From an uncultured Gemmatimonadaceae bacterium (GTDB lineage Bacteria; Gemmatimonadota; Gemmatimonadetes; Gemmatimonadales; Gemmatimonadaceae), in the NCBI GenBank assembly GCA_963781585.1, contig CAWAGQ010000013.1, positions 480,001 through 544,000 on the forward strand: a stretch of DNA of 64,000 nucleotides, given 5' to 3'. This document shows positions 576 through 64,000 of the stretch, one piece after another (the first letter of the stretch is position 1; every line of letters begins with the position of its first letter). The notes under the pieces were generated by a model that was not told the DNA's origin, ran no database searches, and was given only the letters and a program-made list of their open reading frames with translations. The position numbers were made by a program, and so were the translations under genes.

Positions 576-1877
576 TCACCGGTCGGCTCTCCCCTGCCCG
601 AGAGATCGCCGGTGCGTCTCCGGCGCGAACCACGTTGCAACCACGCTGATCGCGCTCGACCCCGCCATGTACCACGCCACCGCGTGCGCCCCGTCGCGCG
701 CCAGGAGCAGGGTGGCGATGAATGGCGCGAGGCCCCCGGAAAAGACCGACGCGAGCTGGTAGATGAGGGACGCGCCGCTGTATCGCACGCGGGTCGAGAA
801 CAGCTCCGCGAAGTAGGCCGCCTGCGGCCCGTACATCATGTCCTGTCCGACGTTCAACCCCAGAATGATCGCGATCGGCACGAACGCGGCGCCGAGGCCG
901 ATGAGCGGGAAGAACAGGAACGAGTAGACGAGCGACAGCACCGCGCCGGCCAGGTACACCGGACGTCGCCCAATGCGGTCGGAGAGCGCGCCGAAAATCG
1001 GATTCGAGAACAGGCCCACCACCGCCGCCACCGCCACGCCGGCGAGCATCGCCTTCCTGGAGTAGCCGAGAGTCTTTTCTCCGTAGCTCAGCACGAAGAC
1101 GGTGTAGATGTAGAAGAGCATGTTCTGCGCGAAGCGCATGCCCATGCCGACCACGATCTCCCGCGGATGGGCGCGAAAGACCTCGAGCAGCGGCGCGCGC
1201 ACCGTGTCGCGACGCTCCTGGAGATCGGTGAATGCCGGAGTCTCGAGCAGGCGGAGCCGCACGAACAGGCCGACGGCGACGAGCACCGCGCTCAGGAGAA
1301 ACGGGATGCGCCAGCCCCACGCCACGAACTGCTCGTCAGGCAGGGTTCCCGAGAAGAAGGCGAAGACGCCGGTGGAGAGGAGGAGTCCGGCCGGTACGCC
1401 CATCTGCGGCCAGCTTCCGTGAAGGCCTCGCCGGCCCGTGTCGCCCGAGTGCTCCACTGCCATCAGCACCGCGCCGCCCCACTCGCCGCCGACGCCAATT
1501 CCCTGCAGGAAGCGCAGCACCACCAGGATGACCGGCGCCCAGTAGCCGATGGCGTCGTATCCCGGCAGGATGCCCATCAGCATCGTAGCCACGCCCATGA
1601 TCAGGAGCGACCAGACGAGCGTCTTCTTACGCCCCACCCGGTCGCCGTAGTGGCCGAAGATCGCGCCGCCTAACGGACGGGCGACGAAGCCGACCGCGAA
1701 GGTGCCGTACGCGCTCAGCGTCCCGGCCAGCGGATCCAGCGTCGGGAAGAAAAGGCGGTTGAAGACCAGCGCCGCGGCGGTGCCGTAGAGGAAGAAGTCG
1801 TACCACTCAATGGTAGTGCCGATGAAGCTGGCGAAGATGACCGCGCGCAGATTCTGGCGGGTGGCTGGTTTCGTCAC
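576..1877 (-). CDS. MFS transporter, metabolite:H+ symporter (ShiA/ProP-like)
   Basis: GTTIEWYDFFLY, GHYGDRVGRK, GGEWGGA motifs; GTG start overlaps upstream stop (GTGA). Confidence 0.92.
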   Translation of the reverse strand: MTKPATRQNLRAVIFASFIGTTIEWYDFFLYGTAAALVFNRLFFPTLDPLAGTLSAYGTFAVGFVARPLGGAIFGHYGDRVGRKKTLVWSLLIMGVATMLMGILPGYDAIGYWAPVILVVLRFLQGIGVGGEWGGAVLMAVEHSGDTGRRGLHGSWPQMGVPAGLLLSTGVFAFFSGTLPDEQFVAWGWRIPFLLSAVLVAVGLFVRLRLLETPAFTDLQERRDTVRAPLLEVFRAHPREIVVGMGMRFAQNMLFYIYTVFVLSYGEKTLGYSRKAMLAGVAVAAVVGLFSNPIFGALSDRIGRRPVYLAGAVLSLVYSFLFFPLIGLGAAFVPIAIILGLNVGQDMMYGPQAAYFAELFSTRVRYSGASLIYQLASVFSGGLAPFIATLLLARDGAHAVAWYMAGSSAISVVATWFAPETHRRSLGQGRADR

Positions 1878-5967: not shown

Positions 5968-5983
5968 CGCACGCGTGAGTGCG

Positions 5984-8510: not shown

Positions 8511-8517
8511 TTCATCG

Positions 8518-8919
8518 GTGTCGAGCATTCGAGACTATCTCGCCGAAATCGGTCGACGCGGGGGCATCAGAAGCCGCCGTGTTCTCGAACCCGGGACGGC
8601 GCGCCGCATGGTGCAGATTCGCGAGGCGAGGCGAGCCGCCAGAAACGCGAGCGCTGCGCCGGCGCGCGCCAGTGGCACTCCCGCCGACACCACCAACGCC
8701 GCGCAGGCCGTCCAGGATGCGCTCCTGAAGCGCACATCACCGGCCGACAAGCTGGCGCAGGTGGCACGACTCTCCCGCATGGTGGACCAGCTTGCGATGG
8801 CGGGACTCAAGCAACGACACCCGGCTGAGGACGAGGAGATGATTCAGGATCGCCGGGCAGAACTTCGGCTGGGCCGCAGGCTGGCCACCACGCTGCACCG
8901 CGCGCGACATGACGCCTGA
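8518..8919 (+). CDS. Hypothetical protein, partner of downstream nucleotidyltransferase
   Basis: YLAEIGRRGG N-terminus; DTT..AQAVQ..LL...SPADKL segment; overlaps next gene. Confidence 0.65.
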   Translation: MSSIRDYLAEIGRRGGIRSRRVLEPGTARRMVQIREARRAARNASAAPARASGTPADTTNAAQAVQDALLKRTSPADKLAQVARLSRMVDQLAMAGLKQRHPAEDEEMIQDRRAELRLGRRLATTLHRARHDA

Positions 8920-9478
8920 CGATGTGCAGGATCCCGTGACGATCGCGCTGAATATCGGCGCCCGGTTGGATGCGCTTGGTGTTGCCTGGGTCACGGGAGG
9001 GTCCATCGCGAGCTCGGTGCATGGGGAGCCGCGGGCCACGCAGGACGTGGACATGGTCGTGGCCCTGCGCCCCCGACACGTGAAGCCTTTGGTGGAGGCA
9101 CTCGGGCGCGACTACTACGTCGACGCAGACGAGCTGCGCTCCGCCGTGAAGTCTGCCGCCTCATTCAACGCCATTCACTTCGCCAGTGCCATCAAGGTGG
9201 ACTTCTTCGTCGCCGGAAACGACCCATTCGAGGCGGAGCGGCTGGCGTGCCGCCAGCCGGTGGGGACGCCGGGCGGGGTACTGTACGTGGACACGGCGGA
9301 GCACACACTGCTCAGGAAACTCGAGTGGTATCGTCGCGGCGGTGAGGTGTCGGAACGGCAATGGCGCGATGTGCAGGCCATCGTGCGCCTGCAGGGCGAG
9401 CGGCTCGATCGCCAGCGGCTGCGGAAGTGGGCGCGGCGACTCGGAGTCACCGACCTGCTCGTGCGGATCCTGCAGTAG
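8909..9478 (+). CDS. Nucleotidyltransferase-fold protein (DUF6036/AbiEii-like)
   Basis: GGSIAS...GEPRATQDVD motif; KLEWYRRGGEVSERQWRDV. Confidence 0.75.
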   Translation: MTPDDVQDPVTIALNIGARLDALGVAWVTGGSIASSVHGEPRATQDVDMVVALRPRHVKPLVEALGRDYYVDADELRSAVKSAASFNAIHFASAIKVDFFVAGNDPFEAERLACRQPVGTPGGVLYVDTAEHTLLRKLEWYRRGGEVSERQWRDVQAIVRLQGERLDRQRLRKWARRLGVTDLLVRILQ

Positions 9479-9598: not shown

Positions 9599-10492
9599 AT
9601 GGAACGGAAGAACGCCCGCGAATACCCACAGGAACTGCTCGACCTGTTCGACCGCTTCGTGCACGGCGACATCGATCGCCGTGGCTTTCTGGATCGCGCA
9701 ACGCGGTTTGCGGTTGGTGGCGTCACCGCGCAAGCGATCCTCGAAAGCCTGTCGCCCAACTTCGCCTGGGCCCGGCAGGTCGACGCGCAGGATCCGCGCA
9801 TCACGACCGAAACCGTCACCGTGCCGTCGCCCCAGGGCAATGGGAGCATCAAGGGCCACTTCGCGCGCCCAAGGACGTCGAACGGGAAACTGCCGGTCAT
9901 CCTCGTGATCCATGAGAACCGGGGACTCAACCCGTACATCGAAGACGTTGCGCGACGGCTCGCCGTGGCGAACTTCATCGCCTATGCTCCCGATGGCCTG
10001 ACGAGCGTAGGCGGCTATCCGGGCGACGAGGACAAGGCGCGTGCGCTCTTTCCGACCGTCGACCGCGAGAAGATGACGGAGGACTTCATCGCCTCGGCGC
10101 GGTGGCTCAAGGCGCGGCCTGACAGCAACGGCCGGTTGGGAGCCGTGGGCTTCTGCTTCGGCGGGGGGATAGTCAACACGCTGGCCGTGCGCATGGGCGC
10201 CGACCTGGCGGCCGGCGTGCCATTCTACGGCGGACAACCCGCCGCGGCCGACGTCGCAAAGATGAAGGCGCCACTCCTCATTCATTACGCGGGGCTCGAC
10301 ACCCGCATCAACGAAGGGTGGCCCGCCTTCGAAGCGGCGCTCAAGGCCAACCGCGTCTCGTACGAAATGCACATGTACGAGGGCGCCAACCACGGCTTCC
10401 ACAACGACACCACCCCGCGCTACGACGAAGCGGCGGCAACGCTCGCCTGGCAGCGCACGCTGGCGTTCTTCAACAAGCACCTGCGCGTGTAA
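9599..10492 (+). CDS. Dienelactone hydrolase family protein (YghX-like)
   Basis: DRRGFL twin-arginine-like; HENRGLNP, GFCFGG, HGFHNDTT. Confidence 0.92.
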   Translation: MERKNAREYPQELLDLFDRFVHGDIDRRGFLDRATRFAVGGVTAQAILESLSPNFAWARQVDAQDPRITTETVTVPSPQGNGSIKGHFARPRTSNGKLPVILVIHENRGLNPYIEDVARRLAVANFIAYAPDGLTSVGGYPGDEDKARALFPTVDREKMTEDFIASARWLKARPDSNGRLGAVGFCFGGGIVNTLAVRMGADLAAGVPFYGGQPAAADVAKMKAPLLIHYAGLDTRINEGWPAFEAALKANRVSYEMHMYEGANHGFHNDTTPRYDEAAATLAWQRTLAFFNKHLRV

Positions 10493-10577: not shown

Positions 10578-12536
10578 TCACACCGCCCGCGCCGCCGCAC
10601 CGCGCCGCAACATCCATCGGTAGAGCCACAGGACAGCCCCGCCGAAGCCCAGCAACCCGAGCCAGGGCGCCGCAGCGAACGACTCCGGAACGAGGCCGAC
10701 CGGCGCGTCGTTCGATGTCGCCACGATGAGCCCCGCGTTGATCACGCCCCAAAGACTCTCGCCGACGATCAGTCCCGAAGCCACCAGTGTCCCCAGCCGC
10801 TCCGTGCGATCGGGGTTGGGTGTTCCCCTGGCGCGACGGCGGAACCAGTGGCCGATCACCGCGCCGACGATCACCGCAAACGTCGCCGACATCGGCAGGT
10901 AGATCCCGATTCCGACGGCGAGCGGGGGAATCCGCATTTTCTTCATCGCGCCGAGCGCCGAGTCGAGCAGAATCATCGTCACGCCGATGACGGCGCCGAT
11001 GCCGATCATCTGCCAGTCCAGCGCGCCACCGATCACTCCCTGCGCGAGCGCCGAAATGAGCGTCGCCTGCGGTGCCGGCAACGGGTTTGGCGCCACCACG
11101 CCGACGTTGGCGGCTCCGGCGAATCCATACGCCTTCGCGAGCAGGTTGAGCACCGAGGGGATCACCGCGGCACCGGCCGCCACACCGACGATGAGCGCGA
11201 CCTGCTGGCGCATCGGCGAGGCACCGACGAGCTGGCCCGTCTTCAAATCCTGGAGGTTGTCGTTGGAGATCGTGGCGCAGGCGAAAACGATCGCGGTGAC
11301 GAAGAGCGCGAACGCGACGAGCGCGGGCCGCGTCGCCTCGTCAGGCGGAACCGCGAGCACCAGAAGCGACGCGCAGATCACGATCGACAGGATGCCGACG
11401 CCCGACACCGGGCTGTTCGACGCCCCGATCAGCCCCGCCATGTAGCCGCAGATGCCCGCGATCAGGAAGCCCACCAGCAGCACGAACGGCACCGCGACCA
11501 GCGTGAGCCGCGCGGCGCTTGCCGCCAGCGGCGTGGACCGCGCGAACGTGTACGCGAGCACGCCGGCCATCGCCAGGCACGCGACCGTCAGCGCGAGGAT
11601 CCACGATGGACCGATGTCGCGATCGAGGTCGTCGGCGCGAGTCGCGGCGCGAGACGCGGCGAGCGTGCTCACGAGGCCGCCGACGACCGGCTTGGCGAGC
11701 GTGGCGAGGGTGTAGATCGCCGCGATGCCGATCGTGCCGGCCCCGATGAATCGCACCTGCCTGCTCCAGATCGTCGCCGTGTGGGCGGCCAGCGTCACCC
11801 CCTGGGCGGCGGGGTGCAGTGCGGTGAGGATCGGTACCGCGGCGCCCCAGGCAATGATCATTCCCACCAGGAACGCGACGCCCACCGAAAGGCCGACCAG
11901 GTGTCCCGCGCCGAGCAGCGCGAGCGACCACGCGATGTCGTAGCCGCTGGAGGCACTCGCGCCGAGACCCAGGAAGCCGCTCACTTCCGCCGCGGCGATG
12001 CGCGTCGCGGTGAGAATCGCCAGGCCGCCGGACGCGACCGAGCCGAGGATGACGGCGACAAGCCCTTCGCGGGCCTCACCCGTTTCGTCCTTGACCTCTC
12101 CGCGCGCACCCGATCCGACCTTGAGCACCTCGGCCGCCGCAACGCCCTCCGGATAGGGGAGGTCGGACGTGGTGACGAGCGCGCGACGCAGCGGAATCGT
12201 GAACAGCACGCCCAGCACGCCACCGCTCACGCAGATCAGGAACGACTGCCAGAACGGAAAGCTGGTCCACCAGCCGACGATGACGAGTCCGGGGAGGACG
12301 AAGATGATCGCCGAAAGGGTCCCGGCCGCGGAGGCGACGGTCTGGACGATGTTGTTCTCGAGGATCGACGAGTCCTTGACGGCGCTCAGCACGGCCATCG
12401 AGATGACCGCCGCCGGGATCGACGAGGCGAAGGTGAGCCCGACCTTGAGCCCGAGGTAGATGTTGGCGGCGGTGAACCCGGTGGTGATCAGCGCGCCGAG
12501 GACCAGGCCGCGGAGCGTGAGTTCTCTGGGCGTCAT
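10578..12536 (-). CDS. OPT family oligopeptide transporter
   Basis: ELTLRG, YLGLKVGLT, ENNIVQT, NDNLQDLKTG, LPAPQA. Confidence 0.93.
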   Translation of the reverse strand: MTPRELTLRGLVLGALITTGFTAANIYLGLKVGLTFASSIPAAVISMAVLSAVKDSSILENNIVQTVASAAGTLSAIIFVLPGLVIVGWWTSFPFWQSFLICVSGGVLGVLFTIPLRRALVTTSDLPYPEGVAAAEVLKVGSGARGEVKDETGEAREGLVAVILGSVASGGLAILTATRIAAAEVSGFLGLGASASSGYDIAWSLALLGAGHLVGLSVGVAFLVGMIIAWGAAVPILTALHPAAQGVTLAAHTATIWSRQVRFIGAGTIGIAAIYTLATLAKPVVGGLVSTLAASRAATRADDLDRDIGPSWILALTVACLAMAGVLAYTFARSTPLAASAARLTLVAVPFVLLVGFLIAGICGYMAGLIGASNSPVSGVGILSIVICASLLVLAVPPDEATRPALVAFALFVTAIVFACATISNDNLQDLKTGQLVGASPMRQQVALIVGVAAGAAVIPSVLNLLAKAYGFAGAANVGVVAPNPLPAPQATLISALAQGVIGGALDWQMIGIGAVIGVTMILLDSALGAMKKMRIPPLAVGIGIYLPMSATFAVIVGAVIGHWFRRRARGTPNPDRTERLGTLVASGLIVGESLWGVINAGLIVATSNDAPVGLVPESFAAAPWLGLLGFGGAVLWLYRWMLRRGAAARAV

Positions 12537-12542
12537 TTGTCC

Positions 12543-15769: not shown

Positions 15770-15790
15770 GCGTGCACGCCAACGCCCGCG

Positions 15791-51893: not shown

Positions 51894-51977
51894 CCTCTCG
51901 CGTTTTGCAAGAGGGTGCGAATGACCTGAAGACCGGTTCGCCGGATCGTTAGTACTAACCAGCAGTTGTCAAATAGC
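51894..51977 (-). promoter_or_regulatory. CRISPR leader
   Basis: Between cas2 stop and first repeat; TTGACA on minus (51967-51972); palindrome GTTAGTACTAAC at 51948-51959. Confidence 0.75.
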
Positions 51978-52307
51978 TTACTCCGGTTCCAAGTCGGCTT
52001 CGATTGCAGGTAAGAGCTCCCGTCGTGCCAGGAAGATGCCATCCGCATCCTGCAGGTCCTTCGGCGGCAGGCCGAGCATCGAAACCCCTTGGCCGCCTGG
52101 CAAACGCACGTCGCGCCAGGTCATCACTATGCCCCCCGTACCCAGTTCGCCATGCCAATCCTCCAGGACCGACCAGATGCGCTCGCGAACGGCCCGTGTC
52201 ATCCGGGGCGCTGTGTATACGCCGGGTGCAATCTCCAGCATGCAGGACGCCAGAAAGCCCCGGAAGCGCGGAGCGAGGTCAACCGTTGCGACCACCGTCA
52301 TGGGCAT
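51978..52307 (-). CDS. cas2: Type I-E Cas2
   Basis: RFRGFLASCMLEIAPGVY, VRERIW, LGLPPKDL. Confidence 0.92.
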   Translation of the reverse strand: MPMTVVATVDLAPRFRGFLASCMLEIAPGVYTAPRMTRAVRERIWSVLEDWHGELGTGGIVMTWRDVRLPGGQGVSMLGLPPKDLQDADGIFLARRELLPAIEADLEPE

Positions 52308-53160: not shown

Positions 53161-53163
53161 GAC

Positions 53164-53985: not shown

Positions 53986-54683
53986 GGGCTTGCCTTCGGC
54001 CAATCTCCGTTTTGACCCGCCGACTTCACTTCATCGGTAACCTCAACCCACTCCGTGCGCACGTAGCGCAGTCCGTACCGTCGGTTGCCCTCTGCGAAGG
54101 ACAGAGGAACATCATACCGCGCTTCTCCGTCCTCGGCCGGCTCGACCTCGACCACGGCGCGGAGCGGTCCAGGATCGATGCGTTCGGCGGGTGGGGCGTC
54201 GCGCACGGCAGCCGCCGCGTCGCCCTCGCCGAAACCTGCAAACGGCGGCACTGACGGGACGCAGGCGCGCCGGCCGAGAAACAGAGGCCAGCGAGGCGAT
54301 TGCAGCGCATCGCCGATTGACCGAACCAACAGGGCGTCGCCCGCCAGCGCCGCGACGAAACTCGCGTCCTGCAGGTAGTAGCGGTGACTTGGCACACAGT
54401 CCTTGGCACCGAACACGAGGTAACGGTCGCCGCGAAACCGCCCACCACCGGCCGTGTGATAATCGTGAAGCAACGACCCCTGGCGGTCGACGCGAACCGC
54501 GAGCCTCAACTCTCGAAGATCCGCGAGCCTTGCCTCGTCGTCGCGGGCCATGCCGAGCGCGGATCCCACAAGGCCCAGGACGCCGCTCTTGCTCGGCTCC
54601 TGATCGGTGTCACGGATGCCGAGCTTGATCTGGGTGGACCAGGCCTGAAGGGGTCCTTCAAGACGGATAAGCACCGACGTCAT
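53982..54683 (-). CDS. cas5e: Cas5e/CasD
   Basis: LEGPLQAW, PSKSGVLGL, DYHT, RYYLQDA, LFLGRRAC. Confidence 0.93.
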   Translation of the reverse strand: MTSVLIRLEGPLQAWSTQIKLGIRDTDQEPSKSGVLGLVGSALGMARDDEARLADLRELRLAVRVDRQGSLLHDYHTAGGGRFRGDRYLVFGAKDCVPSHRYYLQDASFVAALAGDALLVRSIGDALQSPRWPLFLGRRACVPSVPPFAGFGEGDAAAAVRDAPPAERIDPGPLRAVVEVEPAEDGEARYDVPLSFAEGNRRYGLRYVRTEWVEVTDEVKSAGQNGDWPKASP

Positions 54684-55915
54684 GCGGACGCCCCGACTGC
54701 ACGATCTGTGATCTGTGTGAAAAAGTCACCCAGTTTCTTGGCTCGAGCCACGCCGTCCTCGTCAGCCAAGTCCCGGTCGGCCCACGTTATCGCGAACCGG
54801 TCGCGGGCGCCGATGGCATCCTCCATGCGACCGAAATAGGCTTCCAGCTTGGTGATCGAATCGTCCACCAGGTCGGCCTCGCCATCACCGGCCCCGTGCG
54901 GGCGGGCCGGTTTCAGGAACGCGTTCGTTAGAGAGACGGACTGGCCGCCCGCGCGAACGACCGCAAGGGCGTAGCTCGGGAAATTGTGTGCGGCCATGCT
55001 GTTCTGCTTGCCTGTGGGAATAGCGGAGACGAAGGCGCGGACGAAGGCCTCCACCGATCGCTTCAGGAGATCTTCGGCATCGTCGCCGTCGCCGAGGTTT
55101 TCGTGAAGCTTCCTGACATCCAGGACCGCGTACCGGTAGAAGCACGATGAGTTGAACTGGATGGTGCCCATCATGTCCGAACCGGCGGTGTCATCAGGCT
55201 TGAAGTCATCCACCGCAGTGAAGAAGTCGAAGTCCATCTGAACTTTGTTGGTCGAAATTGCGTGGGCGACCTGGCATGAGGCTTCGACATTCCACTCCGG
55301 CCTGTCGGCAATCATTCGGCCAAATAGCGCCAGATCCGCGGCGGCGCGGGCGTTCTCGAAGAGCTCCTGAATCTTCGTGCCGATTTCCTTTGGGTACGCC
55401 AGTTCCTTCTCCCTCTTCCTCTGCTTCGTCGACTTCTTCTTGCTAGGCGTTGCGTCTGTGTCGCCCTCGGCTACGGGCTCGGGTGACGACGGCAAAGTGT
55501 GTAACTCGTCCCGATGCTCGTGAAGCAGGGCCGCGAGTTCATTAATCGTTCTGCGCGGCACGAACAGCAAGTACTCGGTCTTCCACCCCTCCTCACCCTC
55601 AGCCTTCTTTCGGCCAAGTCCCGCCCCTTCCAACGAGCCGAGTGCCAGAGTCATCGCCTCCTCAGAATTGTGCCCATGCTCTTCCACCAACACTCGGGCT
55701 ACCTCCTGCGCAATCCGCTTAGTCCGCGCTCCCAGATTCTCGAGGTTCACCAGCTTCTCGAGTCGAAACAATTCTCGAACGGCGCGCTTCTGGCACTGGC
55801 TCGAGATGCGTGCGCGCCTATGCCCGCCAAGCTCGCAGTCCTTGGGAGCCCCTGTGTCGTCGCGGTTGAGATTGGAAGGGGCGAAGTTCTGGAGCAGATG
55901 CAATTCGACTTTCAT
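54680..55915 (-). CDS. cas7e: Cas7/CasC
   Basis: LNRDDTGAPK, RISSQ, ALFGRM, QVAHAIST, DFFTAVDD. Confidence 0.95.
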   Translation of the reverse strand: MKVELHLLQNFAPSNLNRDDTGAPKDCELGGHRRARISSQCQKRAVRELFRLEKLVNLENLGARTKRIAQEVARVLVEEHGHNSEEAMTLALGSLEGAGLGRKKAEGEEGWKTEYLLFVPRRTINELAALLHEHRDELHTLPSSPEPVAEGDTDATPSKKKSTKQRKREKELAYPKEIGTKIQELFENARAAADLALFGRMIADRPEWNVEASCQVAHAISTNKVQMDFDFFTAVDDFKPDDTAGSDMMGTIQFNSSCFYRYAVLDVRKLHENLGDGDDAEDLLKRSVEAFVRAFVSAIPTGKQNSMAAHNFPSYALAVVRAGGQSVSLTNAFLKPARPHGAGDGEADLVDDSITKLEAYFGRMEDAIGARDRFAITWADRDLADEDGVARAKKLGDFFTQITDRAVGASA

Positions 55916-55929
55916 TGCCGCGCCTCCGT

Positions 55930-56463
55930 TCACGTAGTTGCCGTTTCTGTGCGAGCGATACTTGCATCTTCGCCTTTCAGCGCCCAGAAGTCGCGCGCCC
56001 AGCGGCGACGAACGAAATCGCTCTCGTAGTCCCAATACCTAATGGCACGATACAGATCATCCCAGTCAATGCCGAGGTCGCTCGCCGCGAGCAACGAGAT
56101 CGCGCGACGAAGATGCACGGCCAGGTCCGTGCGCTCGGCGGCCATAAGCGCCAAGAATCGCTTTTCCACACTGTCGCGCGAGTCCCTGCCAGGTGGGCGC
56201 CACACCATCCGCAAGCCCTTGGCGAGCGAGAGTGAGGTAGTGACAGGGCGAAGGGCGAAGAGCCCGGCCAAGAGCACGGCGTCGTCCTCCGCGCGCTGCC
56301 CAGCGTCTTGAGGGAGGAAAGGCAGGACGACCCGAAGTCCCGCGAGCGAGTGATCGCCATCCAGCGAAGCGCGGAGAGCCGCAAGAGTCGCGCGGTCTTC
56401 ACGCGCGGCGATGTCCTCGAGATACTCGACCAAGGGAGCCTTCGACCTCTGTTGCTGGTTCAC
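55930..56463 (-). CDS. casB: Cse2/CasB (Cas11)
   Basis: LAALRASL, VEKRFLALM, IDWDDL, RWARDFW; position in operon. Confidence 0.9.
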   Translation of the reverse strand: MNQQQRSKAPLVEYLEDIAAREDRATLAALRASLDGDHSLAGLRVVLPFLPQDAGQRAEDDAVLLAGLFALRPVTTSLSLAKGLRMVWRPPGRDSRDSVEKRFLALMAAERTDLAVHLRRAISLLAASDLGIDWDDLYRAIRYWDYESDFVRRRWARDFWALKGEDASIARTETATT

Positions 56464-58049
56464 GTTTCAGCCTCCTGCATCGTTTCCTTTCCAGCAGCAA
56501 GTGACTCGGTGTCGACGAGGTACGTCAACGTCCTTTCGAACTCTGTTTCTGCCAGCGCGCGCGCCTTCATCGTTCGGCCATCCGCCATCGCACTCGAGAC
56601 CGCTTCGTAAAATTGCTTGCGCACCACTTGGCGGGTTCGCTCCTCGAAGCGACGCCGCGCATCGTCCTTGTCACCACTCAGACCCAATACGAACGCCTCA
56701 AAGGCGGCACCGAGTGCGCTCCACGCCGCTGGCTGAGCCCCTAAGGAGCGTACGAAATCTTGGCGCTGCTCCCGTTGTTCTCTCCCATCGCTGCCCGCCC
56801 GTGGCAAGCTCTCGCGAGCGAAAGTGGAGAGGGCCGCCCAAAGACACCGCACCGCTGCTTCGGCAAACCTGAGGGCATGCTCGATGGCTTCGCGGGCATC
56901 CGGATCGGCGAAGAGCCCCACAGCGGCGGCGAGCTGTTCGGCCCGAGTGTAGTCAATGCGCGATTTCTCGGCCGAAAGCCCGAACATGCCAATCGTGTAG
57001 ACGGTGGACGTTCCGACAACATCCAGGGCCTCGGGGCTGGCCATCTGATCCAAGGTCATCGGGCGTCGAAATTTCTTACCATCGCTGCGCCCGCCTTCGA
57101 AGAGACTATCTGCGTTGCGCCAGAACGCCTTTTCAGGATCGATACCAATGCTCAAGAACCCGCGCTTTTCATCAAGCCGATATGACACCATCGGGTCAAG
57201 ATCGCACCCTTCCGCCAAACCTTGTCCCACACACCGCACGAAGTGAAGAACCTGGTGATCCTCCCCCACAAGTTCGATTCGTCGGCTGACCCACGTGAGC
57301 ACGTCCAACCACCCCGTGGGAAGGCGCTTGGGCTCTTGTGTCACCGGCATTCTCTCGGGCAACGCCCCCCGCTCCCAAGCTGGAGCGTCGTCTTGGCTTG
57401 CGACGATCGGGCGGTTCTGGGCCGGGTCATAAACGAGTAAGTTCGCCACCAAGGTCTCGAATAGGGACGCTCCGCGAAGCAGCACAACGGCGGCCCGGAC
57501 CAAAGGCGCCGCTGTGGCGGATGTCGGCTCGTTGGGCTTCTTCACCAAGCCCCCCGTGGCGAACGCTTGATGTGCCAAGAGGGCTCGCGTAGCCTGCGCC
57601 GGTTCCATCGATGGGTGATGCGCGACAGGGCGGTGTTGAAACAACTCCCGGGCCGATCCCCAGCTGGAACGCTCCAAGGTGAGCGCGTCGATCGGATCCG
57701 CCGCGAACTGCTGTACCAATCCTCGAGTCTGCGCAAATGGATGCGTCGGATGGAACAAATCCATCCGATCTCGTACACCACTCAGGTATCTCTCAACATG
57801 GTCGGCCTCAAAGCGTCCGCTGCGCGCGATGACGCACCATTCGTTCATGGTTGTCGGCCCCACATAAGCCCGATGCAGCACCGCCAGTAAGTGCCGATGC
57901 AGCACGGCGAGAACCAATGGCGATGGGTCTGCGATCGTCCTGACGCGATGCGCCTCGACCAGGGCATCCCTGGTGGAAAGCTCCGCGCGCTGGCCATCCA
58001 TGAATTCGCAGGGGATCCACGGTTGCGTGGTGAGGTTGAATGAGTCCAT
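56460..58049 (-). CDS. casA: Cse1/CasA (Cas8e)
   Basis: FNLTTQPWIP, DLFHPTHPFAQ, GASLFETL, TWVSRRI, DPM. Confidence 0.92.
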   Translation of the reverse strand: MDSFNLTTQPWIPCEFMDGQRAELSTRDALVEAHRVRTIADPSPLVLAVLHRHLLAVLHRAYVGPTTMNEWCVIARSGRFEADHVERYLSGVRDRMDLFHPTHPFAQTRGLVQQFAADPIDALTLERSSWGSARELFQHRPVAHHPSMEPAQATRALLAHQAFATGGLVKKPNEPTSATAAPLVRAAVVLLRGASLFETLVANLLVYDPAQNRPIVASQDDAPAWERGALPERMPVTQEPKRLPTGWLDVLTWVSRRIELVGEDHQVLHFVRCVGQGLAEGCDLDPMVSYRLDEKRGFLSIGIDPEKAFWRNADSLFEGGRSDGKKFRRPMTLDQMASPEALDVVGTSTVYTIGMFGLSAEKSRIDYTRAEQLAAAVGLFADPDAREAIEHALRFAEAAVRCLWAALSTFARESLPRAGSDGREQREQRQDFVRSLGAQPAAWSALGAAFEAFVLGLSGDKDDARRRFEERTRQVVRKQFYEAVSSAMADGRTMKARALAETEFERTLTYLVDTESLAAGKETMQEAET

Positions 58050-60826
58050 TACGACGCCTTGTCTGCTTGTCGGATACAAAGCCCCAGTTCAGCATCGAGG
58101 ACGAAGCTCACGCCCGCCACCCGTGCGCGTCCCTCTTCGAATGCGAGCAGTCGCCGATATCGCAACAGCGGCGATTTCTTCCAGCTCTCCGGTATCGCCG
58201 TTTGAGGATCGTTAATGATGGCATGGAAGGCGCGTCGGTTGCTCACGCCGATAGAGCGGCGCACCAGCCGTTCGACGAGCAGCCAGTCAGGCTCTTTGCA
58301 AAGGTCGAGAGGCGTTTCGTCGCCGTCACCCACGAGGAGCTGCCCTCCCCGCCGGTCCACACAAAGGAGTTCAACTGACGGGGGCCCGAGGCGCGTATCC
58401 GCACGCAACTGCTGGTGCAGCACGGGATCGTCATCATCTGTCAGGAACACTCGCAAGTTGCCGAAAGGATCGTCGACGACGTAGGGATGCGGCATGAGCT
58501 TCTGTTCCGAGAGGTTGCGTTGAACCGCCTTCGCGCCGTGGTGCGCGATCCAGGCGGCATGGAGCTGTTCGCCCGCAGCGACCGGCCTGTCGCAATAGAC
58601 TTCTTCGACCAGTGGCTCGATATCGGTAGGTAGGGTGAAGGTCTCCGTGTTCTCGAGCTTCTCCAGCGTCCGGCGAACCAACATTTCTGCGTACACAACT
58701 GCAACCTGATCCAATGAAGCCGTCGTCCAAGGGCCATCGGGACACACAATCGTGAGCCGCGGCTCCTTCACCCCCGGAAATCGGTTACCTCGCTGATGCC
58801 GCCACAGGCGCCCGGCCCGCTGGAGTAGGAGGTCCATCGGCGCGACATCGGTGACCATGAAGTCGAAGTCGACATCGAGGCTCTGCTCTAGCACCTGGGT
58901 CCCGATCACGACGCATCCCTCCGGTCGCTCGGTGTCGCCGCCCTCAGGCCCCAGCCACTTGGCCAGCCGTTCCTCGCGCTCCACGCGGTCAGCTGGCAGA
59001 AGCTGTGAGTGCAGAAGCAGGCGGCCAAGGCCCGCAGCCATCTCGCACACGCGTGTGGTGGCTTCCTGTGCGCGCGCGACCGTGTTGCAGATCCACCCTA
59101 CACATCCGCCGCGCCGCGCCACCTCGATAACCCTGCGCGTAAGCTCGTCTACGTCGTCTCGGCTGCGCTCGACCCCCACCGAGATCGGTTTCCCGCGAGG
59201 TGCAAACGAGTCGACCTTGTTGGAAGTGCGAGATGCGAGAGTGATCCGCGGATAAGGTCCCGTCGGCTGTTCTCCTTCAGGCATTCCGGCACCCTTGCGA
59301 TACGCACGAAGGAGGTCGGCGCGGCGGCTGGAGGGCAGGGTGGCCGAGAGCAAGACTACAGTGGTGCCGGTGGCAGCGAGCCACTCGACGAGACGATCGA
59401 GCAGATTACTGGTATAGGTGTCATATGCATGGATCTCATCGAAGATCACGACCTTGCTGGCAAGCCCGTAGAGTCGGACGAATGCGTGGGGCACACGCAT
59501 GACGCCAAGTAACGCCTGGTCGATCGTCCCGACTGCGAATTCGCCGAGCAGTTTGCGCTTCTTCGACAGGAACCACGCCTCGGCGCGCACCGCCCCGACG
59601 CCTTCAGCATCGCTGTCGTACACCGCCCCTACGCGGAGTTTTCGAAAGCCCTCCCAGAGCGATGCTTCGCCGTGCGCCAAGAGGAGGGTCGAGAGCGCTC
59701 CTCCGCGCGTGCGCGCCAGGAATCGCTCGATACGGCCGAACATCTGATTCGCCGTCGCCTGGGTGGGGAGGCCGATATAGAACCCTCCCTCGCCGATCTG
59801 CGCGGCCGCGGCATCGGCCAGGGTGAGCGCGGCCTCCGTCTTTCCTTCGCCCATTGGTGCTTCCACGACGATCAGTGAAGGTGTGTCTAGGGTCGGTGCG
59901 ATCGAGTCCGCGGCGGAATGCAGGGGCCAAGGGTCCAGCTGCGGGAATAGTTGCCGAAACGACCGCGCCGTCGATGGCGGCGCTGGGCGAAAGCCTGCAT
60001 TCTCCAATGCCGTGTCTGCCCGAGCCAGAGCGATTCGCCAGTAGGTGGGCAGCGACCGTTGAGGTGGCTCGTAAAGGAAGAAGTCCTCCATCGAACCGAT
60101 CCAATCCGCGACCGACGTGACACCTGCGAGCAAGACGACGTAGGCGTGATCAATCTGCGCGACACCGGACAGCGAAGTGACACGGAAATGGTCAGCCATC
60201 ACCTTGACGACGGCCGCCCGTGCGGAGTCCCATTGCGCTTTCCGGCCACGCTCCCGCGACCCCGGCGGTTTGCAGACGGACGCGTCGGTGGGAAACTGCC
60301 CGTGATGGGCAGTGACCGCACGCGCCAGACGTAGTGCAGTCGAGGTCGACGCTCCGTAGTGTTCCTCCAACTCTGGTTTGAGGAAGAACAGGCCGATGTC
60401 TCCGTGAAACCGAGCCCCCTGGTCCGCCTGGAGATCGAATCCACGCTTCGGGAATTCACGTCGGGCCCAATCGACCTTCGCCTGGAAGGCCGGTGTGGCC
60501 TTTCCAAGGTCGTGCAGCGCGATGACAAACAGCAAGGTCCGCAGGCTGTCGAGGCGATCCGTCGACAGCGCCAGCAGCCGGTCCCGTACGGCAGGTGGCT
60601 GTATCGCTGTGAGCAATCGCGCAGCCACGGCTGCGACGTCCAACATGTGACAGAGTAGCGAATGCGCGGGGCAAGACCCCTTGGGTTGTGCCTTACCCCA
60701 GAGCAGCCACTCCGGCCGCCCGCCCGCATGGCCCAACCACTCGTCAATTGTGTCGGCGGTGAGAGCGGCCGCAGGAGGGACCGGACCGCCAAGCGATGCT
60801 ACCCAGTCACACAAGACGTCGGCCAC
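58049..60826 (-). CDS. cas3: Cas3 HD nuclease-helicase
   Basis: HMLDV, HDLGKA, ADWIGS, APMGEGKTE, DEIHAYD, QRAGRLWRH. Confidence 0.96.
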   Translation of the reverse strand: MADVLCDWVASLGGPVPPAAALTADTIDEWLGHAGGRPEWLLWGKAQPKGSCPAHSLLCHMLDVAAVAARLLTAIQPPAVRDRLLALSTDRLDSLRTLLFVIALHDLGKATPAFQAKVDWARREFPKRGFDLQADQGARFHGDIGLFFLKPELEEHYGASTSTALRLARAVTAHHGQFPTDASVCKPPGSRERGRKAQWDSARAAVVKVMADHFRVTSLSGVAQIDHAYVVLLAGVTSVADWIGSMEDFFLYEPPQRSLPTYWRIALARADTALENAGFRPAPPSTARSFRQLFPQLDPWPLHSAADSIAPTLDTPSLIVVEAPMGEGKTEAALTLADAAAAQIGEGGFYIGLPTQATANQMFGRIERFLARTRGGALSTLLLAHGEASLWEGFRKLRVGAVYDSDAEGVGAVRAEAWFLSKKRKLLGEFAVGTIDQALLGVMRVPHAFVRLYGLASKVVIFDEIHAYDTYTSNLLDRLVEWLAATGTTVVLLSATLPSSRRADLLRAYRKGAGMPEGEQPTGPYPRITLASRTSNKVDSFAPRGKPISVGVERSRDDVDELTRRVIEVARRGGCVGWICNTVARAQEATTRVCEMAAGLGRLLLHSQLLPADRVEREERLAKWLGPEGGDTERPEGCVVIGTQVLEQSLDVDFDFMVTDVAPMDLLLQRAGRLWRHQRGNRFPGVKEPRLTIVCPDGPWTTASLDQVAVVYAEMLVRRTLEKLENTETFTLPTDIEPLVEEVYCDRPVAAGEQLHAAWIAHHGAKAVQRNLSEQKLMPHPYVVDDPFGNLRVFLTDDDDPVLHQQLRADTRLGPPSVELLCVDRRGGQLLVGDGDETPLDLCKEPDWLLVERLVRRSIGVSNRRAFHAIINDPQTAIPESWKKSPLLRYRRLLAFEEGRARVAGVSFVLDAELGLCIRQADKAS

Positions 60827-61254
60827 ATTAGCCTCATCTTACTAATAAGGTGGGAGGGTTCGTCGCCCATTGCACATCCATGGCCGCACCTCCAAGACAA
60901 GCCGGGTCAGGATGCCTCGTGGGACCTCCCGCGCGACGCCGCGTCAAGCTAGCGGTCGATGCCCTGGCCGGTTTGGTCTTCGGGCTTCACGGTCGAGCGA
61001 TCATGCCGGGATCGCGGGCCCTGATCGCAAACTTCTCGAACTTGTTTCGGATTCGCTAGGCGCTGTCCGCGCCGCCGTCCTTCGCCTTCCGGCCGGAAAT
61101 GCTGCGGCCCCCTCCACCGCGGCAAGAATCCGGTACGTCCTGCGTCATTCTGGTAATTCGGAACGGCGGGATGAGCTCACATTGCCGGTGCGGTTCGGAG
61201 CTCTTTGCGAACCCCGCGCCTGAGTATGCCGGTCTCGCCAGCCCGTTCAGGGTC

Positions 61255-61338
61255 GCCGGCGTGGCGGAACTGGCAGACGCGGCACCCTCGCAAGGCGCTG
61301 GGCGCAAGCCCGTGTGGGTTCCATTCCCATCGCCGGCA
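61255..61338 (+). tRNA. Atypical or pseudo tRNA: Leu-type class II body with anticodon CGC (Ala)
   Basis: Acceptor GCCGGCG/CGCCGGC, A73; D arm GCGGAACTGGCAGACGC; anticodon arm GCACC-CTCGCAA-GGCGC; variable arm GGGC-GCAA-GCCC; T loop TTCCATT. Confidence 0.7.
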
Positions 61339-61422
61339 CCCACCGTGGTTTCCCTTGACTCGGCACGCCGAGCACGATTATGCTCGGCATACCTTGCGAG
61401 GGTGCCGCGGTCCAGCCACGCT

Positions 61423-61764
61423 GTGATCGCGCTGAGACGGAGGCGTCAGGTCGGCGCCTCCGTTCCTCTTTACACCGAGGCCCTGCTAGCCCAGGGACTC
61501 GAGCGTCGCCAGCTCGGGACGATCGTTGAGACGCTGGCACAAGGCGTCTTCGAGGTCGAGTTCTCTCACGACCGGGGTCACACCTATGCGTCGGTGAGCG
61601 TCCCCGCCACCACGCTGCCGATCCTGCACCACCAGCCCGCCGGGCGCTGGCGCGCGCTCTTCGGCATCGTCCGATCAATCTGGATGGTTGCGGCCTTCGG
61701 CCTCACGGCGGAACCTGGCGCCGTCTCGCTTGGAACAGTCGCGGCCGCGGGCTCAACTCTATAG
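61423..61764 (+). pseudogene. Degenerate DUF4926-like protein
   Basis: GLERRQLGTIVETLAQGVFEVEFSHDRGHTYA resembles the DUF4926 core; ends look eroded. Confidence 0.5.
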
Positions 61765-61824
61765 ATGATGCCGATAGCACAAGCACTTTCTCCCGCGGAT
61801 GGCCAGGAAGGTCCTTATGGAGAA

Positions 61825-61897
61825 CTCCCGAGGCAGGACTCGAACCTGCGACCCGGTGATTAACAGTCACCTGCTCTACCAGCTGAGCTACTCGGGA
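61825..61897 (-). tRNA. tRNA-Asn(GTT)
   Basis: TCCCGAGTAGCTCAGCTGGTAGAGCAGGTGACT-GTT-AATCACCGGGTCGCAGGTTCGAGTCCTGCCTCGGGAG cloverleaf. Confidence 0.96.
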
Positions 61898-61907
61898 ATG
61901 GGTGCGA

Positions 61908-62054: not shown

Positions 62055-62903
62055 GTGACCGCACCTAACGAACGCACCAGACCCATCGCCCTCGTCACCG
62101 GCGCCTCCGGCGGCATCGGCCAGGCACTCGCCTCCCAGCTGGCCGCCCGCGGCTACGACCTCGTCCTCGTCGCGCGCCGCGAGGAACGACTCCGCGACCT
62201 GGCCGCATCACTGGCCCGGTCCCACAGCGTGCAGTGCGAAATCGTTGTCGCCGATCTCGCGAAGCATGAACAACGCGAGCGCATCATCCGGGACCTGGAA
62301 CCGCACCGCGACCGCGTCGAAATCCTGATCAACAACGCCGGATTCGGCACCCACGGCTACTTCCGCGAGACGGACCTCGAGCGCGAGCTCGAGCTCATCG
62401 CCGTGAACTGCGACGCTCCGGTCCACCTCGCCAAGCGCATCCTCCCGTGGCTGCTCGCGCGCCGTCGCGGCTTCATCATGAACGTGGGCTCGGTCGCGAG
62501 CTTCACTCCCGGACCGGTGATGGCGCTGTACTACGCATCCAAGGCATTCCTCCTCTCCTTCTCCGAGGCCCTGTGGGAAGAGTGCCGAGCGAGCGGTGTC
62601 GCCGTCACCGCCCTCTGTCCCGGCCCGGTACGCACGGGATTCCAGGAGGCCGCCGGCGTCGTCTCGACCGCGCGATCGAGCATTGCCGCGCCGATGTCGG
62701 CCGATGACGTCGCTGCCTCCGGCCTGTCCGCGATGTTCGCCGGGCGGCGACTGGACGTCCCCGGGGGCGCCAACAAGCTCTCGGTCTCCCTGATGAGGTG
62801 GCTGCCGCGCACGTTCGCCCTCTCCACCGTGCGCAAGTTCCAGGAGGAACGCCGCCGCCAGACCCGGCGCGCGCGCGGACTCCCGGACGACACCAGCGCC
62901 TAA
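62055..62903 (+). CDS. SDR family oxidoreductase
   Basis: TGASGGIG, NNAGFG, YYASK. Confidence 0.92.
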   Translation: MTAPNERTRPIALVTGASGGIGQALASQLAARGYDLVLVARREERLRDLAASLARSHSVQCEIVVADLAKHEQRERIIRDLEPHRDRVEILINNAGFGTHGYFRETDLERELELIAVNCDAPVHLAKRILPWLLARRRGFIMNVGSVASFTPGPVMALYYASKAFLLSFSEALWEECRASGVAVTALCPGPVRTGFQEAAGVVSTARSSIAAPMSADDVAASGLSAMFAGRRLDVPGGANKLSVSLMRWLPRTFALSTVRKFQEERRRQTRRARGLPDDTSA

Positions 62904-64000
62904 CGCGCGCGCTCCCGCACCTCGGCATTCACCCGGAACGCCGGCGCCTCGTAGTCGCTCGGGCGCTGGTCGGCGGGAATGGCGATCGTGTTGCCGTCAC
63001 GTGCCGCCATGTAGTGCGGCGACATGATCTCCACCCCCGCCTTCGCGAACTCATCCTGGATGTTCTGGTGCAGTTCGCCGTAGGTCACCGCCATGCGGCT
63101 CGCCTGGTCGGTATAGGCGTTGATCTCGTACGACACGAAGAAGTCGTTCAGGGCCGTCTGCAGCACGAATGGCGCCGGCTTCTCGAGGATGCTCCTGGTC
63201 CGTGCCGCCGCCGTGATCAGCAGCTCGTGCACGGTGCGCCACGGCGCATCGTAGCCGATCGTGACCGTCGAACAGAGAATGAGACCGTCGTTCTCCGCGC
63301 GCGTCGAATAGTTCACGATGTGGCTGGCCAGCACCGCCGCGTTGGGGATTGTGATCTCCACGTTCTTGATGGTCCGCACCCGCACCACCAGCAGGTTGCT
63401 CTCCACCACGTCGCCTACCGTGTCGGCGATCTTCACGCGATCGCCGGGGCGAAACGGGATCATGTAGGTGAGGACAATGCCGGCGACGATGTTCGCCACC
63501 GCCGACGTCGATCCGAGCGAGAGCAGGACGCCAAAGAAGATCGACACGCCGCGAAACGCCGGTGACTGGGAACCGGGCAGATAGGGAAACGCGATGACCG
63601 TGGCGAACGCCATGATCAGGAAGCGCACGATCTTGTAGGTGGGGTCGGCCCACTCCGCGTGAAAACTGGGGAGATGGATCTCACTCCGCTCCACGGCGTC
63701 GAAGAAGAGCTTCGTAGCGCGCATCACGAATCGGGCGATCACGACGATGATCGCGATGTACAGGACCTTCGGCAGGTAGCCCAGCACCGAGAGCGACGTG
63801 TCGCGCACCGCCGACCACCCGTAGTCGAACATCCGGCCCGCCACGCCCCGCGTCCACGGGAAGAACCCCAGGACCAGCTGCACGTAGATGGCCAGCGCGA
63901 CCAGCATCAGAACCACCCGGAGCGCCCGAACCATCCGAATTGCCGCCGCGGTCAGACGGGCCGCGGAAATGAACTCCACCCGCTGGAACCGCACGCCGCG
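62900..64000 (-). CDS. MscS family mechanosensitive channel (5' part outside window)
   Basis: NIVAGIVL..PFRPGDRVKI, IPNA, TIGYD, GVEIMSP. Confidence 0.9.
   Translation of the reverse strand, partial: RGVRFQRVEFISAARLTAAAIRMVRALRVVLMLVALAIYVQLVLGFFPWTRGVAGRMFDYGWSAVRDTSLSVLGYLPKVLYIAIIVVIARFVMRATKLFFDAVERSEIHLPSFHAEWADPTYKIVRFLIMAFATVIAFPYLPGSQSPAFRGVSIFFGVLLSLGSTSAVANIVAGIVLTYMIPFRPGDRVKIADTVGDVVESNLLVVRVRTIKNVEITIPNAAVLASHIVNYSTRAENDGLILCSTVTIGYDAPWRTVHELLITAAARTRSILEKPAPFVLQTALNDFFVSYEINAYTDQASRMAVTYGELHQNIQDEFAKAGVEIMSPHYMAARDGNTIAIPADQRPSDYEAPAFRVNAEVRERAR

Follow-up and report, generated by a model that had tools for sequence, protein, structure and literature searches.

Why does one 8-mer recur, on both strands and mostly inside protein-coding genes, throughout a G+C-rich stretch of bacterial chromosome? 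The question is raised by a 64-kb stretch of DNA (contig CAWAGQ010000013.1, positions 480,001 to 544,000; hereafter the window), which related hydrogenase loci assign to a Gemmatimonadales bacterium, and by the word CGTTAGGC that it carries. An initial reading of the sequence by eye had listed 18 exact copies, set them against two to three expected from base composition, and proposed a selected 'self' signal (the original prediction). An exact-match DNA search for CGTTAGGC and its opposite-strand form GCCTAACG returned these 18 copies at the same coordinates, 10 on the plus and 8 on the minus strand, and arithmetic from the base counts (G+C = 67.3%) gave an expectation of 2.4, in line with that estimate. 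The answer we reach, tentatively, is that CGTTAGGC may be a tag by which a group of these bacteria recognizes its own DNA.

The excess is left unexplained by all of the null models applied. In dinucleotide shuffles of the window (n = 100) the word occurred 1.04 times on average and 4 times at most, versus 18 observed, and an order-3 Markov model with the array of clustered regularly interspaced short palindromic repeats (CRISPR) masked expected 0.71 copies and ranked CGTTAGGC first among all 8-mers. The related loci outside the motif-bearing group described below (n = 75, 1.15 Mb) contain 2 copies, corresponding to 0.106 expected in the window. The excess is thus ~25-fold relative to the Markov model and ~170-fold relative to the relatives. 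Synonymous codons were also shuffled within each of 47 open reading frames (ORFs; 54,039 nt) in 500 rounds, which yielded 0.77 copies on average and never more than 4, versus 15 observed within coding sequence (CDS); this shuffle retains the TTA codons contributed by CGTTAGGC itself, and the excess persists regardless. The original prediction would have been abandoned had a Markov or codon-shuffle model accounted for the counts, and neither does. The dinucleotide, Markov and codon shuffles, together with the rate in relatives, exclude base composition or codon usage as the origin of the word.

The flanks of the 18 copies share nothing, and the unit is therefore the 8-mer itself. Across the 61 sites of five genomes (the window and four relatives), a weak purine preference at positions -1 and +1 was found and nothing more, so that an extended repeat element, such as a repetitive extragenic palindrome or a miniature inverted-repeat transposable element, is excluded. 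Copies matching seven of eight bases, predicted to number about eight, were undercounted: the window holds 55, mostly common GC-rich words such as CGTTCGGC (13 vs 9.8 expected). The truly enriched one-step variants are CGTCAGGC (19-20 vs 3.0), CGTTAGGT (3 vs 0.16) and CGTTAGGG (2 vs 0.16). We regard CGTTAGGT, CGTTAGGG and TGTTAGGC, all of which are in excess, as decayed or proto-copies of CGTTAGGC. As to the 3' edge of the word, the copy in the hydrogenase large-subunit gene hynL (39549-39559) and its counterparts at 11262 in the related loci L001 and L030 are all three followed by the rare Arg codon AGG (ACGTTAGGCAGG), the commonest codings of this Arg in other genomes being CGS/CGA. CGTTAGGCA(G) is a frequent extension of CGTTAGGC, and GTTAGGCA is enriched in the window, L001 and L030; judging from these neighbouring bases, the recognized site may extend 1-3 bases on the 3' side of CGTTAGGC.

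Pfam annotation shows an ordinary chromosomal setting of transporters, a Ser/Thr kinase, hydrolases and, at 37-47 kb, a [NiFe] hydrogenase with its hyp maturation genes. The copies of CGTTAGGC, 15 of the 18 within CDS, are located as follows (coordinates, strand of the word, setting).

1668..1675, minus: sense, major facilitator superfamily (MFS) transporter gene (576-1916, minus), CCG TTA GGC (P-L-G)
15764..15771, plus: its TAG is the stop codon of the ORF for the C-terminal part of alpha-N-acetylglucosaminidase (NAGLU; 15266-15769, plus)
21751..21758, minus: sense, hypothetical 541-aa gene (20701-22326, minus), GCG TTA GGC (A-L-G)
22276..22283, minus: sense, the same hypothetical 541-aa gene (20701-22326, minus), ACG TTA GGC (T-L-G)
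24530..24537, plus: antisense, putative 140-aa ORF (24483-24905, minus; G+C at third codon positions (GC3) 0.82-0.83, no Pfam match), GAG CCT AAC GAG
24904..24911, plus: intergenic, between the end of a GNAT gene (24966) and ORF 24483-24905
26702..26709, plus: antisense, asparaginase-2 gene (25806-27044, minus), CTG CCT AAC GCC (L-P-N-A)
27444..27451, plus: sense, alpha/beta-hydrolase gene (27260-28033, plus), GCG TTA GGC
29235..29242, plus: sense, MFS gene (28625-29989, plus), CCG TTA GGC
29878..29885, minus: antisense, the same MFS gene (28625-29989, plus), CTG CCT AAC GTC
38098..38105, minus: antisense, NiFe hydrogenase small-subunit gene, CTG CCT AAC GTG
39549..39556, plus: sense, NiFe hydrogenase large-subunit gene, ACG TTA GGC AGG (T-L-G-R), 80 orthologs compared
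41127..41134, plus: sense, HycI protease gene, GCG TTA GGC ATC, orthologs mostly A-I-G
42474..42481, plus: sense, hypF, at a poorly conserved position
43150..43157, minus: antisense, hypF, GCG CCT AAC GTG
46028..46035, plus: sense, hypD, CCG TTA GGC GCT, conserved P-L-G-A, with CTC/CTG in other genomes
48386..48393, minus: antisense, DUF5924 gene, TCG CCT AAC GTC
62898..62905, minus: at the overlapping stops of convergent SDR (GCC TAA, plus) and MscS (CGT TAG, minus) genes

The coding copies follow a fixed phase, a feature that the original prediction had not included. It had expected copies mostly in CDS that use TTA or CCT-AAC codons, and this is what we found: the nine sense copies read xCG-TTA-GGC (Leu-Gly) and the six antisense copies G-CCT-AAC-G (Pro-Asn). 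The wobble base falls on word positions 2, 5 and 8 in all 15, the alternative stop-free phase being unused (p = 3e-5). When the five genomes are pooled, the main phase is found at 38 sites and the other at 10, with 13 of the 61 sites lacking a frame call, and the denser genomes also occupy the remaining two open frames (GTT-AGG, CTA-ACG). This order of occupancy suggests that copies appear first where they cost least. Of the 1,833 Leu codons, 20 are TTA; the non-cas genes have 15 TTA codons, nine of which sit inside CGTTAGGC. In the host genes, the word writes 9/53 [SPTA]-Leu-Gly tripeptides, more than any other single encoding, and 6/15 x-Pro-Asn-[VADEG] contexts. Summed over the five fragments, the majority strand holds 38 of the 61 copies, where we estimate ~37 for equal strand use. 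Relative to genes, sense and antisense copies stand at 32:16 in the five genomes, and this mild sense bias may be explained by the available dipeptides. A terminator role is disfavoured, as the regions around the stop-codon or intergenic copies at 15764 and 62898 fold no better than their shuffles.

Genome contigs were then scanned with the hydrogenase large subunit, giving 80 loci (1.217 Mb), nearly all of them titled Gemmatimonadales or Gemmatimonadota metagenome-assembled genomes (MAGs); the best large-subunit match has 85% amino-acid identity. CGTTAGGC is dense in four of the 80 loci, occurs once in each of three, and is absent from 73. The dense loci and the window compare as follows.

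L001: 15 copies in 21.7 kb, 0.69 per kb
L030: 19 copies in 13.6 kb, 1.39 per kb
L043: 4 copies in 14.9 kb, 0.27 per kb
L070: 5 copies in 12.0 kb, 0.42 per kb
Window: 18 copies, 0.28 per kb

All motif data come from the window (64 kb) and from 62 kb of the four related genomes that bear the word. When each locus was scanned de novo against all others, CGTTAGGC was the strongest word by far (lnP -62 in L030 and -37 in L001), and the next unrelated signals were GC-rich words of one very GC-rich locus. The same scan of the remaining 75 loci revealed no comparable hyper-abundant word, which excludes the idea that each Gemmatimonadales lineage has a hyper-abundant word of its own. Because only four relatives are dense and nothing comparable was found elsewhere, the phenomenon is not general to the order.

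The distribution is patchy even among close relatives, which the original prediction had not anticipated. In a protein tree of hynL (74 rows), the five motif-rich genomes lie inside one 10-row group (Shimodaira-Hasegawa approximate likelihood-ratio test, SH-aLRT, 90), in which the window pairs with L001 (99) and L030 with L043 (97). The same group includes L075, L039, L025 and L060, which have no copies, and L079, the sister of L070, which has one; at least 3-4 changes of motif state are required on this tree, counting L038. L038 was considered as a sixth motif genome and rejected, its single copy being one synonymous step (TTG to TTA) from its sisters with no imported tract, hence attributable to chance; the single copies in L058 and L079 were treated likewise. 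The density of CGTTAGGC clearly varies by two orders of magnitude among close relatives.

Orthologs allow the copies to be compared position by position. When 74 large-subunit genes are aligned by codon, the window, L001 and L030 use ACG TTA GGC AGG for a conserved Thr-Leu-Gly-Arg, and elsewhere the commonest codings listed are all ACS CTS GGS CGS; a conserved Ala-Leu-Gly-His is written GCG TTA GGC in L030, L070 and L038. A tblastn search of all loci showed the same for Pro-Leu-Gly-Ala in HypD and Leu-Pro-Asn/Asp-Val in HynS, which use CTC/CTG or CCG/CCC in motif-less genomes and TTA or CCT in motif genomes. At poorly conserved positions, CGTTAGGC comes with conservative replacements (Leu for Ile in HycI and for Val in L070). 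The original prediction had asked for the motif at synonymous positions in orthologs, and TTA or CCT indeed stands at conserved residues in motif-bearing genomes only. Going from CTS to TTA takes two changes and opposes a strong GC3 bias. In these alignments, the CGTTAGGC sites read as directional, DNA-level evolution against codon bias and sometimes against the amino-acid sequence.

Between genomes, only the hydrogenase core is alignable (70-79% nucleotide identity). Within it, one of the three alignable window sites is shared with the sister locus L001, and the HynS site is common to the window, L030 and L043 and missing in L001 and L070. Local identity around shared sites is no higher than elsewhere, and recent recombination at these sites was rejected on that basis. 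In summary, because the word has no strand preference, arises by substitutions that are synonymous or conservative and has sites that turn over from one sister genome to another, CGTTAGGC acts at the level of double-stranded DNA and not of coding; its exact position matters little, its density more.

The window contains a second word, likewise missing from the original prediction. CGTCAGGC is one transition away from CGTTAGGC, and its extended form is TCGTCAGGC. The window has 12 copies of TCGTCAGGC, versus a shuffle mean of 1.29 (largest 6) and 0.22 expected from the background (4 copies in 1.15 Mb); CTCGTCAGGC has 8 copies in the window and none in the background. TCGTCAGGC is also in excess in the four other motif-bearing loci (5 vs 0.216 expected, P = 3e-6), and so the two words travel together. 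Their proportions vary, the ratio of CGTTAGGC to TCGTCAGGC being 18:12 in the window, 15:1 in L001 and 19:1 in L030. The copies of TCGTCAGGC in the window are as follows.

1333..1341, plus: antisense, MFS gene
8914..8922, minus: antisense, start of ORF 8909-9478
9996..10004, minus: antisense, dienelactone hydrolase gene
11338..11346, plus: antisense, OPT transporter gene
14643..14651, minus: antisense, NAGLU gene
18271..18279, minus: outside called genes
31364..31372, plus: sense, BNR/sortilin-like gene
34399..34407, minus: antisense, uppS, CGC CTG ACG ACG
34681..34689, minus: antisense, uppS
36226..36234, plus: sense, Na/Ca exchanger gene
44193..44201, minus: antisense, hypF, inverted pair with CGTCAGGC at 44168-44175, 17-nt spacer, predicted hairpin
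47426..47434, minus: downstream of hypE, inverted pair with CGTCAGGC at 47450-47457, 16-nt spacer, predicted hairpin

TCGTCAGGC thus occupies 1.7-15.7 kb, a stretch devoid of CGTTAGGC. It is found in four reading frames and on both strands. In the Leu-Thr frame the T/C difference between the words is synonymous (CTA vs CTG), and 7/30 [CSRG]-Leu-Thr contexts are written GCCTGACG. The two inverted CGTCAGGC pairs, with spacers of 16-17 nt, are predicted to form hairpins (z = -2.4 and -3.05), and at least two such pairs arose in 263 of 20,000 random placements. A tblastn search with the hydrolase, MFS, BNR, UppS, Na/Ca exchanger, hyp167 and DUF5924 genes gave no match in any locus; most TCGTCAGGC sites are beyond comparison because there are no orthologs outside the hydrogenase cluster. 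From its excess in the window and in the four other motif loci, TCGTCAGGC looks like a dialect of CGTTAGGC.

Both words are absent from one part of the window, the CRISPR-Cas locus.

49154..61898: island free of both words, with the CRISPR array, type I-E cas genes and two tRNA genes

The array has 44 identical repeats (49154-51893) with a 61-bp period and some longer spacers near 50.7 and 51.1-51.4 kb; it is followed by cas2-cas1-cas6e-cas5-cas7-cse2-cse1-cas3 of type I-E (51978-60826, minus strand). The cas region has a GC of 0.63, compared with 0.67-0.72 elsewhere in the window, and the locus is bordered by tRNA-Ala (61255-61340) and tRNA-Asn (61824-61898). A GC some 4-5 points lower than in the surroundings and bordering tRNA genes are as expected of an acquired island. 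The original prediction held that CGTTAGGC avoids the cas genes, with none seen in 52-61.8 kb; this is true, and neither word is present from 48,394 to 62,897. The statistical weight of the avoidance is less for CGTTAGGC alone, with zero copies in the 12.6-kb island vs 4.4 expected (P = 0.012; one island examined). Counting both words, the island has 0 of 30 sites vs 7.3 expected (P = 0.0007), and a gap of this size was reached in 298/20,000 random placements. The test began at 49,338 and the array actually starts at 49,154, so the island is slightly longer than the interval tested.

Taken together, these observations incline us, if at less than an even chance, to regard CGTTAGGC as an uptake-sequence-like (or HIP1-like, after the highly iterated palindrome of cyanobacteria) tag of self DNA that accumulated by biased DNA exchange. 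We favour it because, among known mechanisms, biased uptake or recombination of tagged conspecific DNA best yields such a pattern. CGTTAGGC, with TCGTCAGGC alongside, would be a lineage-specific recognition word on double-stranded DNA in one Gemmatimonadales group. A DNA-binding component of the cell's DNA-exchange machinery would favour fragments that bear the word, and conspecific DNA with new copies would be taken up and recombined more often. Copies would then build up across the chromosome wherever the protein code permits, via biased fixation of synonymous or conservative substitutions, and recently acquired DNA such as the CRISPR-Cas island would remain bare. A reader of the word in an uptake or recombination system, and the natural transformability of these bacteria, are what we infer from this pattern. 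The self signal of the original prediction, compared there with HIP1 and uptake sequences, is therefore retained in its excess, synonymous origin, use of both strands and lineage specificity, and is weakened in the depletion from cas genes, which is marginal for CGTTAGGC alone.

Several observations weigh against biased exchange of tagged DNA. Pfam annotation of the window shows no competence, pilus or pilin gene, and no report of natural transformation or competence in Gemmatimonadota was found in the literature searched. Known uptake sequences are 9-12 nt long with one dominant word per genome, unlike the present main word of 8 nt and second word of comparable frequency in the window. Inverted pairs that act as terminators between genes, frequent among uptake sequences, are lacking for CGTTAGGC: neighbouring copies within 60 bp of each other are absent from the window, and one such pair occurs in the four other motif loci. 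The marginal island depletion of CGTTAGGC is matched by an equally long gap, 14.1 kb, in ordinary genes (1,668 to 15,764), and a gap as long or longer arose in 3,524/20,000 random placements. The window and L001 offer 5 distinct alignable positions, too few to separate drive from site-specific selection. In addition, hynL is a single, transferable gene, and its tree may overstate the patchiness. As for precedents, neither 8-mer is present as a whole word in the literature searched, and looser word-start matching of both words and their reverse complements gave, among the matches listed, unrelated titles (phage isolation, animal or medical genes, E. coli).

The alternative that we take most seriously, while still judging it unlikely, makes CGTTAGGC (CGTYAGGC) the site of a lineage-specific methyltransferase, repair enzyme or nucleoid-structuring protein with no role in uptake, its abundance being held by chromosome-level selection or site-biased repair. 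The excess is of the same order as that given for HIP1 in an excerpt of PMC5861425, the copies are inside CDS and indifferent to orientation, a patchy distribution is what a mobile methylase gene could produce by being gained and lost, and two related words could mean a degenerate or duplicated specificity. However, CGTTAGGC is non-palindromic, unlike HIP1 and most orphan methylase sites, and Pfam identified no methyltransferase gene in the window. The one-step neighbours are enriched rather than depleted, which speaks against a simple drive by very-short-patch-type repair, and the T and C forms at position 4 are both in excess, so that T:G-to-C:G correction cannot account for them. The sharing of one of three alignable window sites with L001, a small sample, also contrasts with the reported conservation of HIP1 sites. 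A role like that of Chi, in which CGTTAGGC would be a hotspot for the RecBCD or AddAB of the lineage and self DNA would be repaired rather than degraded, appears improbable. It would suit a non-palindromic 8-mer at 0.28 per kb, near the ~0.2 per kb of E. coli Chi, that is lineage-specific and missing from a foreign-looking CRISPR-Cas island, but the excess over models and relatives is far above the few-fold excess of Chi. The lack of skew at this scale (10:8 in 64 kb; 38/61 in five loci) departs, though not decisively, from the ~75% co-orientation (~3:1) of Chi with replication.

Selection for off-frame stops ('ambush') or at the codon level, with the TTAG/CTAA core ending frameshifted or antisense translation or placing regulatory TTA codons, is very improbable. 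The core does contain a stop codon on either strand (TAG and TAA), copies terminate many of the spurious long ORFs, and two copies (15764 and 62898) provide the real stop codons of three genes. Yet a core of 3-4 nt would do, whereas all eight positions are fixed and other TTAG-keeping variants are far rarer; moreover, the antisense copies have no TTA codon, and relatives of the same GC have no copies. We give slightly less credence still to, and reject, an integron attC core, a polar sequence of the FtsK-orienting type (KOPS), a dispersed repeat or an artefact of sequencing, assembly or composition. The original prediction had equated the core with that of attC, and GTTAGGC does fit the degenerate GTTRRRY, as the length of 8 fits KOPS. 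attC sites are imperfect inverted repeats with paired cores 50-150 bp apart, flanking cassettes and an adjoining integrase; here, inverted exact copies in the window come no closer to each other than 643 bp, Pfam found no integrase in the window, and 15 of the 18 copies are in conserved housekeeping CDS, so the match is one to the consensus and not to the architecture. KOPS are strongly polar, with >80-90% on one strand per replichore, and the 10:8 split with orientations interleaved in one 64-kb window rules out strong polarity. A repeat element would be conserved farther out than the slight preference for purines at -1 and +1. That four differently named MAG records also have the word in frame at conserved Leu codons speaks against an error of one assembly, and a compositional artefact is contradicted by the Markov, dinucleotide and codon shuffles, which all fall short of the count. 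The remaining probability lies with mechanisms not yet described.

Several side observations were made in the course of this work. The NAGLU gene (13189-15769) is distributed over two overlapping ORFs in different frames, of which 13189-15504 matches NAGLU_N, the TIM barrel and positions 1-106 of NAGLU_C and 15266-15769 matches NAGLU_C 112-266; the frameshift near 15.25-15.5 kb reflects either a pseudogene or an assembly indel. Purine-rich heptamer tandem repeats (AGGCCAA / GCCAAGG, up to 8.4 copies) at 33167-33221, 35797-35865, 44913-44956 and ~46123 lie directly upstream of the starts of ORF 33336, the Na/Ca exchanger gene, hypD and hypE, and may be a translation or regulatory element. AAAGGCCA was rejected as an enriched word of the window, as it arises from these repeats; L001 has a related enriched word, GCGGCCAA (11 copies vs 1.1 expected). 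CTGCCACA(A) looked enriched in several loci; in those with four or more copies, the majority strand has 45/52 copies of CTGCCACA and 27/27 of TGCCACAA. TTGTGGCAG, which is CTGCCACAA read on the opposite strand, occurs up to 9 times in L002, L004, L044, L055, L063 and L070, at ~500-9900 of each, with copies mostly on one strand and mostly upstream of hynS. Neither was accepted as a genomic word, as the placement mostly on one strand and upstream of hynS instead suggests coding repeats: CTGCCACA is probably one of a single conserved gene, and TTGTGGCAG probably a peptide motif repeated within one large conserved gene. CGAATCCG/CGGATTCG occurs 9 times on both strands of L070 (1-11958; 12 kb), versus 0.82 in an order-3 Markov model and ~1.2 from the average rate (136 copies in 1.28 Mb, all loci plus the window), and includes one inverted pair (10847/10870); the window has 9 copies in 64 kb, near background. 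CGAATCCG may be a further lineage-specific word in L070. Finally, two short contigs, L022 and L077, are titled as Acidimicrobiaceae and Akkermansiaceae MAGs, and their hynL is 76-79% identical to the window protein. In the hynL tree, from which L022 was left out for its shortness, L077 falls within the Gemmatimonadota rows; the contigs were probably mis-binned rather than transferred.

We rate CGTTAGGC as a hyper-abundant genomic word of a known kind, here in a new phylum. More guardedly than for the tag itself, we entertain a larger possibility: that uncultured soil Gemmatimonadales may practise sequence-specific recognition of self DNA, the first case outside Proteobacteria and (putatively) Cyanobacteria, through CGTYAGGC in two dialects, RCGTTAGGCR and (C)TCGTCAGGC, and that recent gain or loss among sister lineages may have rewritten thousands of codons. 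If true, this would mean that members of a phylum not known for natural transformation undergo it with a preference for self DNA, that the gene for a DNA receptor should be distributed among genomes as the word is, and that the rarest Leu codon is among those rewritten at conserved residues. Hyper-abundant words are rare, and each known case, namely DNA uptake sequences (DUS), uptake signal sequences (USS), Chi, KOPS and HIP1, exposed a DNA-handling machine; the present one, from a phylum that is little studied and largely uncultured, prevails over codon bias at conserved residues. The asymmetric, AT-cored sequence, the second dialect and the on/off distribution make a reader protein findable, the contrast among close relatives lending itself to phylogenetic profiling for a gene present only where the word is abundant. 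Practical uses would include a binning marker, detection of foreign DNA and possibly uptake-enhancing tags as genetic tools for Gemmatimonadota.

How does CGTTAGGC compare with the known systems? The degenerate consensus of the attC core (GTTRRRY / RYYYAAC) is fitted by 7/8 of its bases; paired inverted architecture, cassettes and integrase are lacking, and its copies align to ordinary ortholog codons. Chi sites are asymmetric, 5-8 nt long, species-specific and enriched in core DNA at a density like that of CGTTAGGC, which differs in having no detected strand skew and a much larger excess. HIP1 (GCGATCGC) is likewise an octamer inside CDS whose excess amounts to one or two orders of magnitude, and the ~25-fold and ~170-fold values of CGTTAGGC fall in the 15- to 300-fold range given, along with conservation of the sites, in the part of PMC5861425 available. 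It differs in being palindromic with known methylase sites, recognized by cognate (orphan) DNA methyltransferases, and near-universal in its phylum with sites conserved beyond the neutral expectation, whereas CGTTAGGC is asymmetric, not its own reverse complement, confined to a few related genomes and subject to turnover. Long without a known function, HIP1 is now linked to transformation, which it is proposed to aid (summary text of PMC13756078; 10.1101/2024.09.10.611283).

The process we favour is that known from the DUS of Neisseriaceae and the USS of Pasteurellaceae. CGTTAGGC differs from them in its length (8 nt vs 9-12), in the second word at similar window frequency, in the lack of terminator-type inverted pairs (of the two CGTCAGGC pairs, one is inside hypF) and in its host, an uncultured Gemmatimonadales lineage with no competence reported. 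DUS and USS are short, non-palindromic words present in hundreds to thousands of copies per genome, at about one per kb, far above expectation; both orientations are used about equally whatever the direction of replication or transcription, and competent cells favour DNA that bears them, with a cognate receptor such as the minor pilin ComP. CGTTAGGC is found at 0.28-1.39 per kb (~0.3-1.4) in the fragments of the five genomes, in the range of uptake sequences, with equal use of both strands. Uptake sequences number 1,471, 765 and 1,892 copies per genome in an excerpt of PMC2817400, in which Findlay and Redfield report that preferences among reading frames go with codon choice, that peptide frequencies are altered, and that genes having no homologs in relatives are free of uptake sequences. 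As far as the excerpts of PMC2817400 and PMC3868556 go, CGTTAGGC resembles DUS and USS also in being mostly intragenic with preferred reading frames, in its synonymous or conservative origin and enriched one-mismatch variants, in forming lineage-specific dialects and, going by one island and marginally for CGTTAGGC alone, in its absence from recently acquired DNA.

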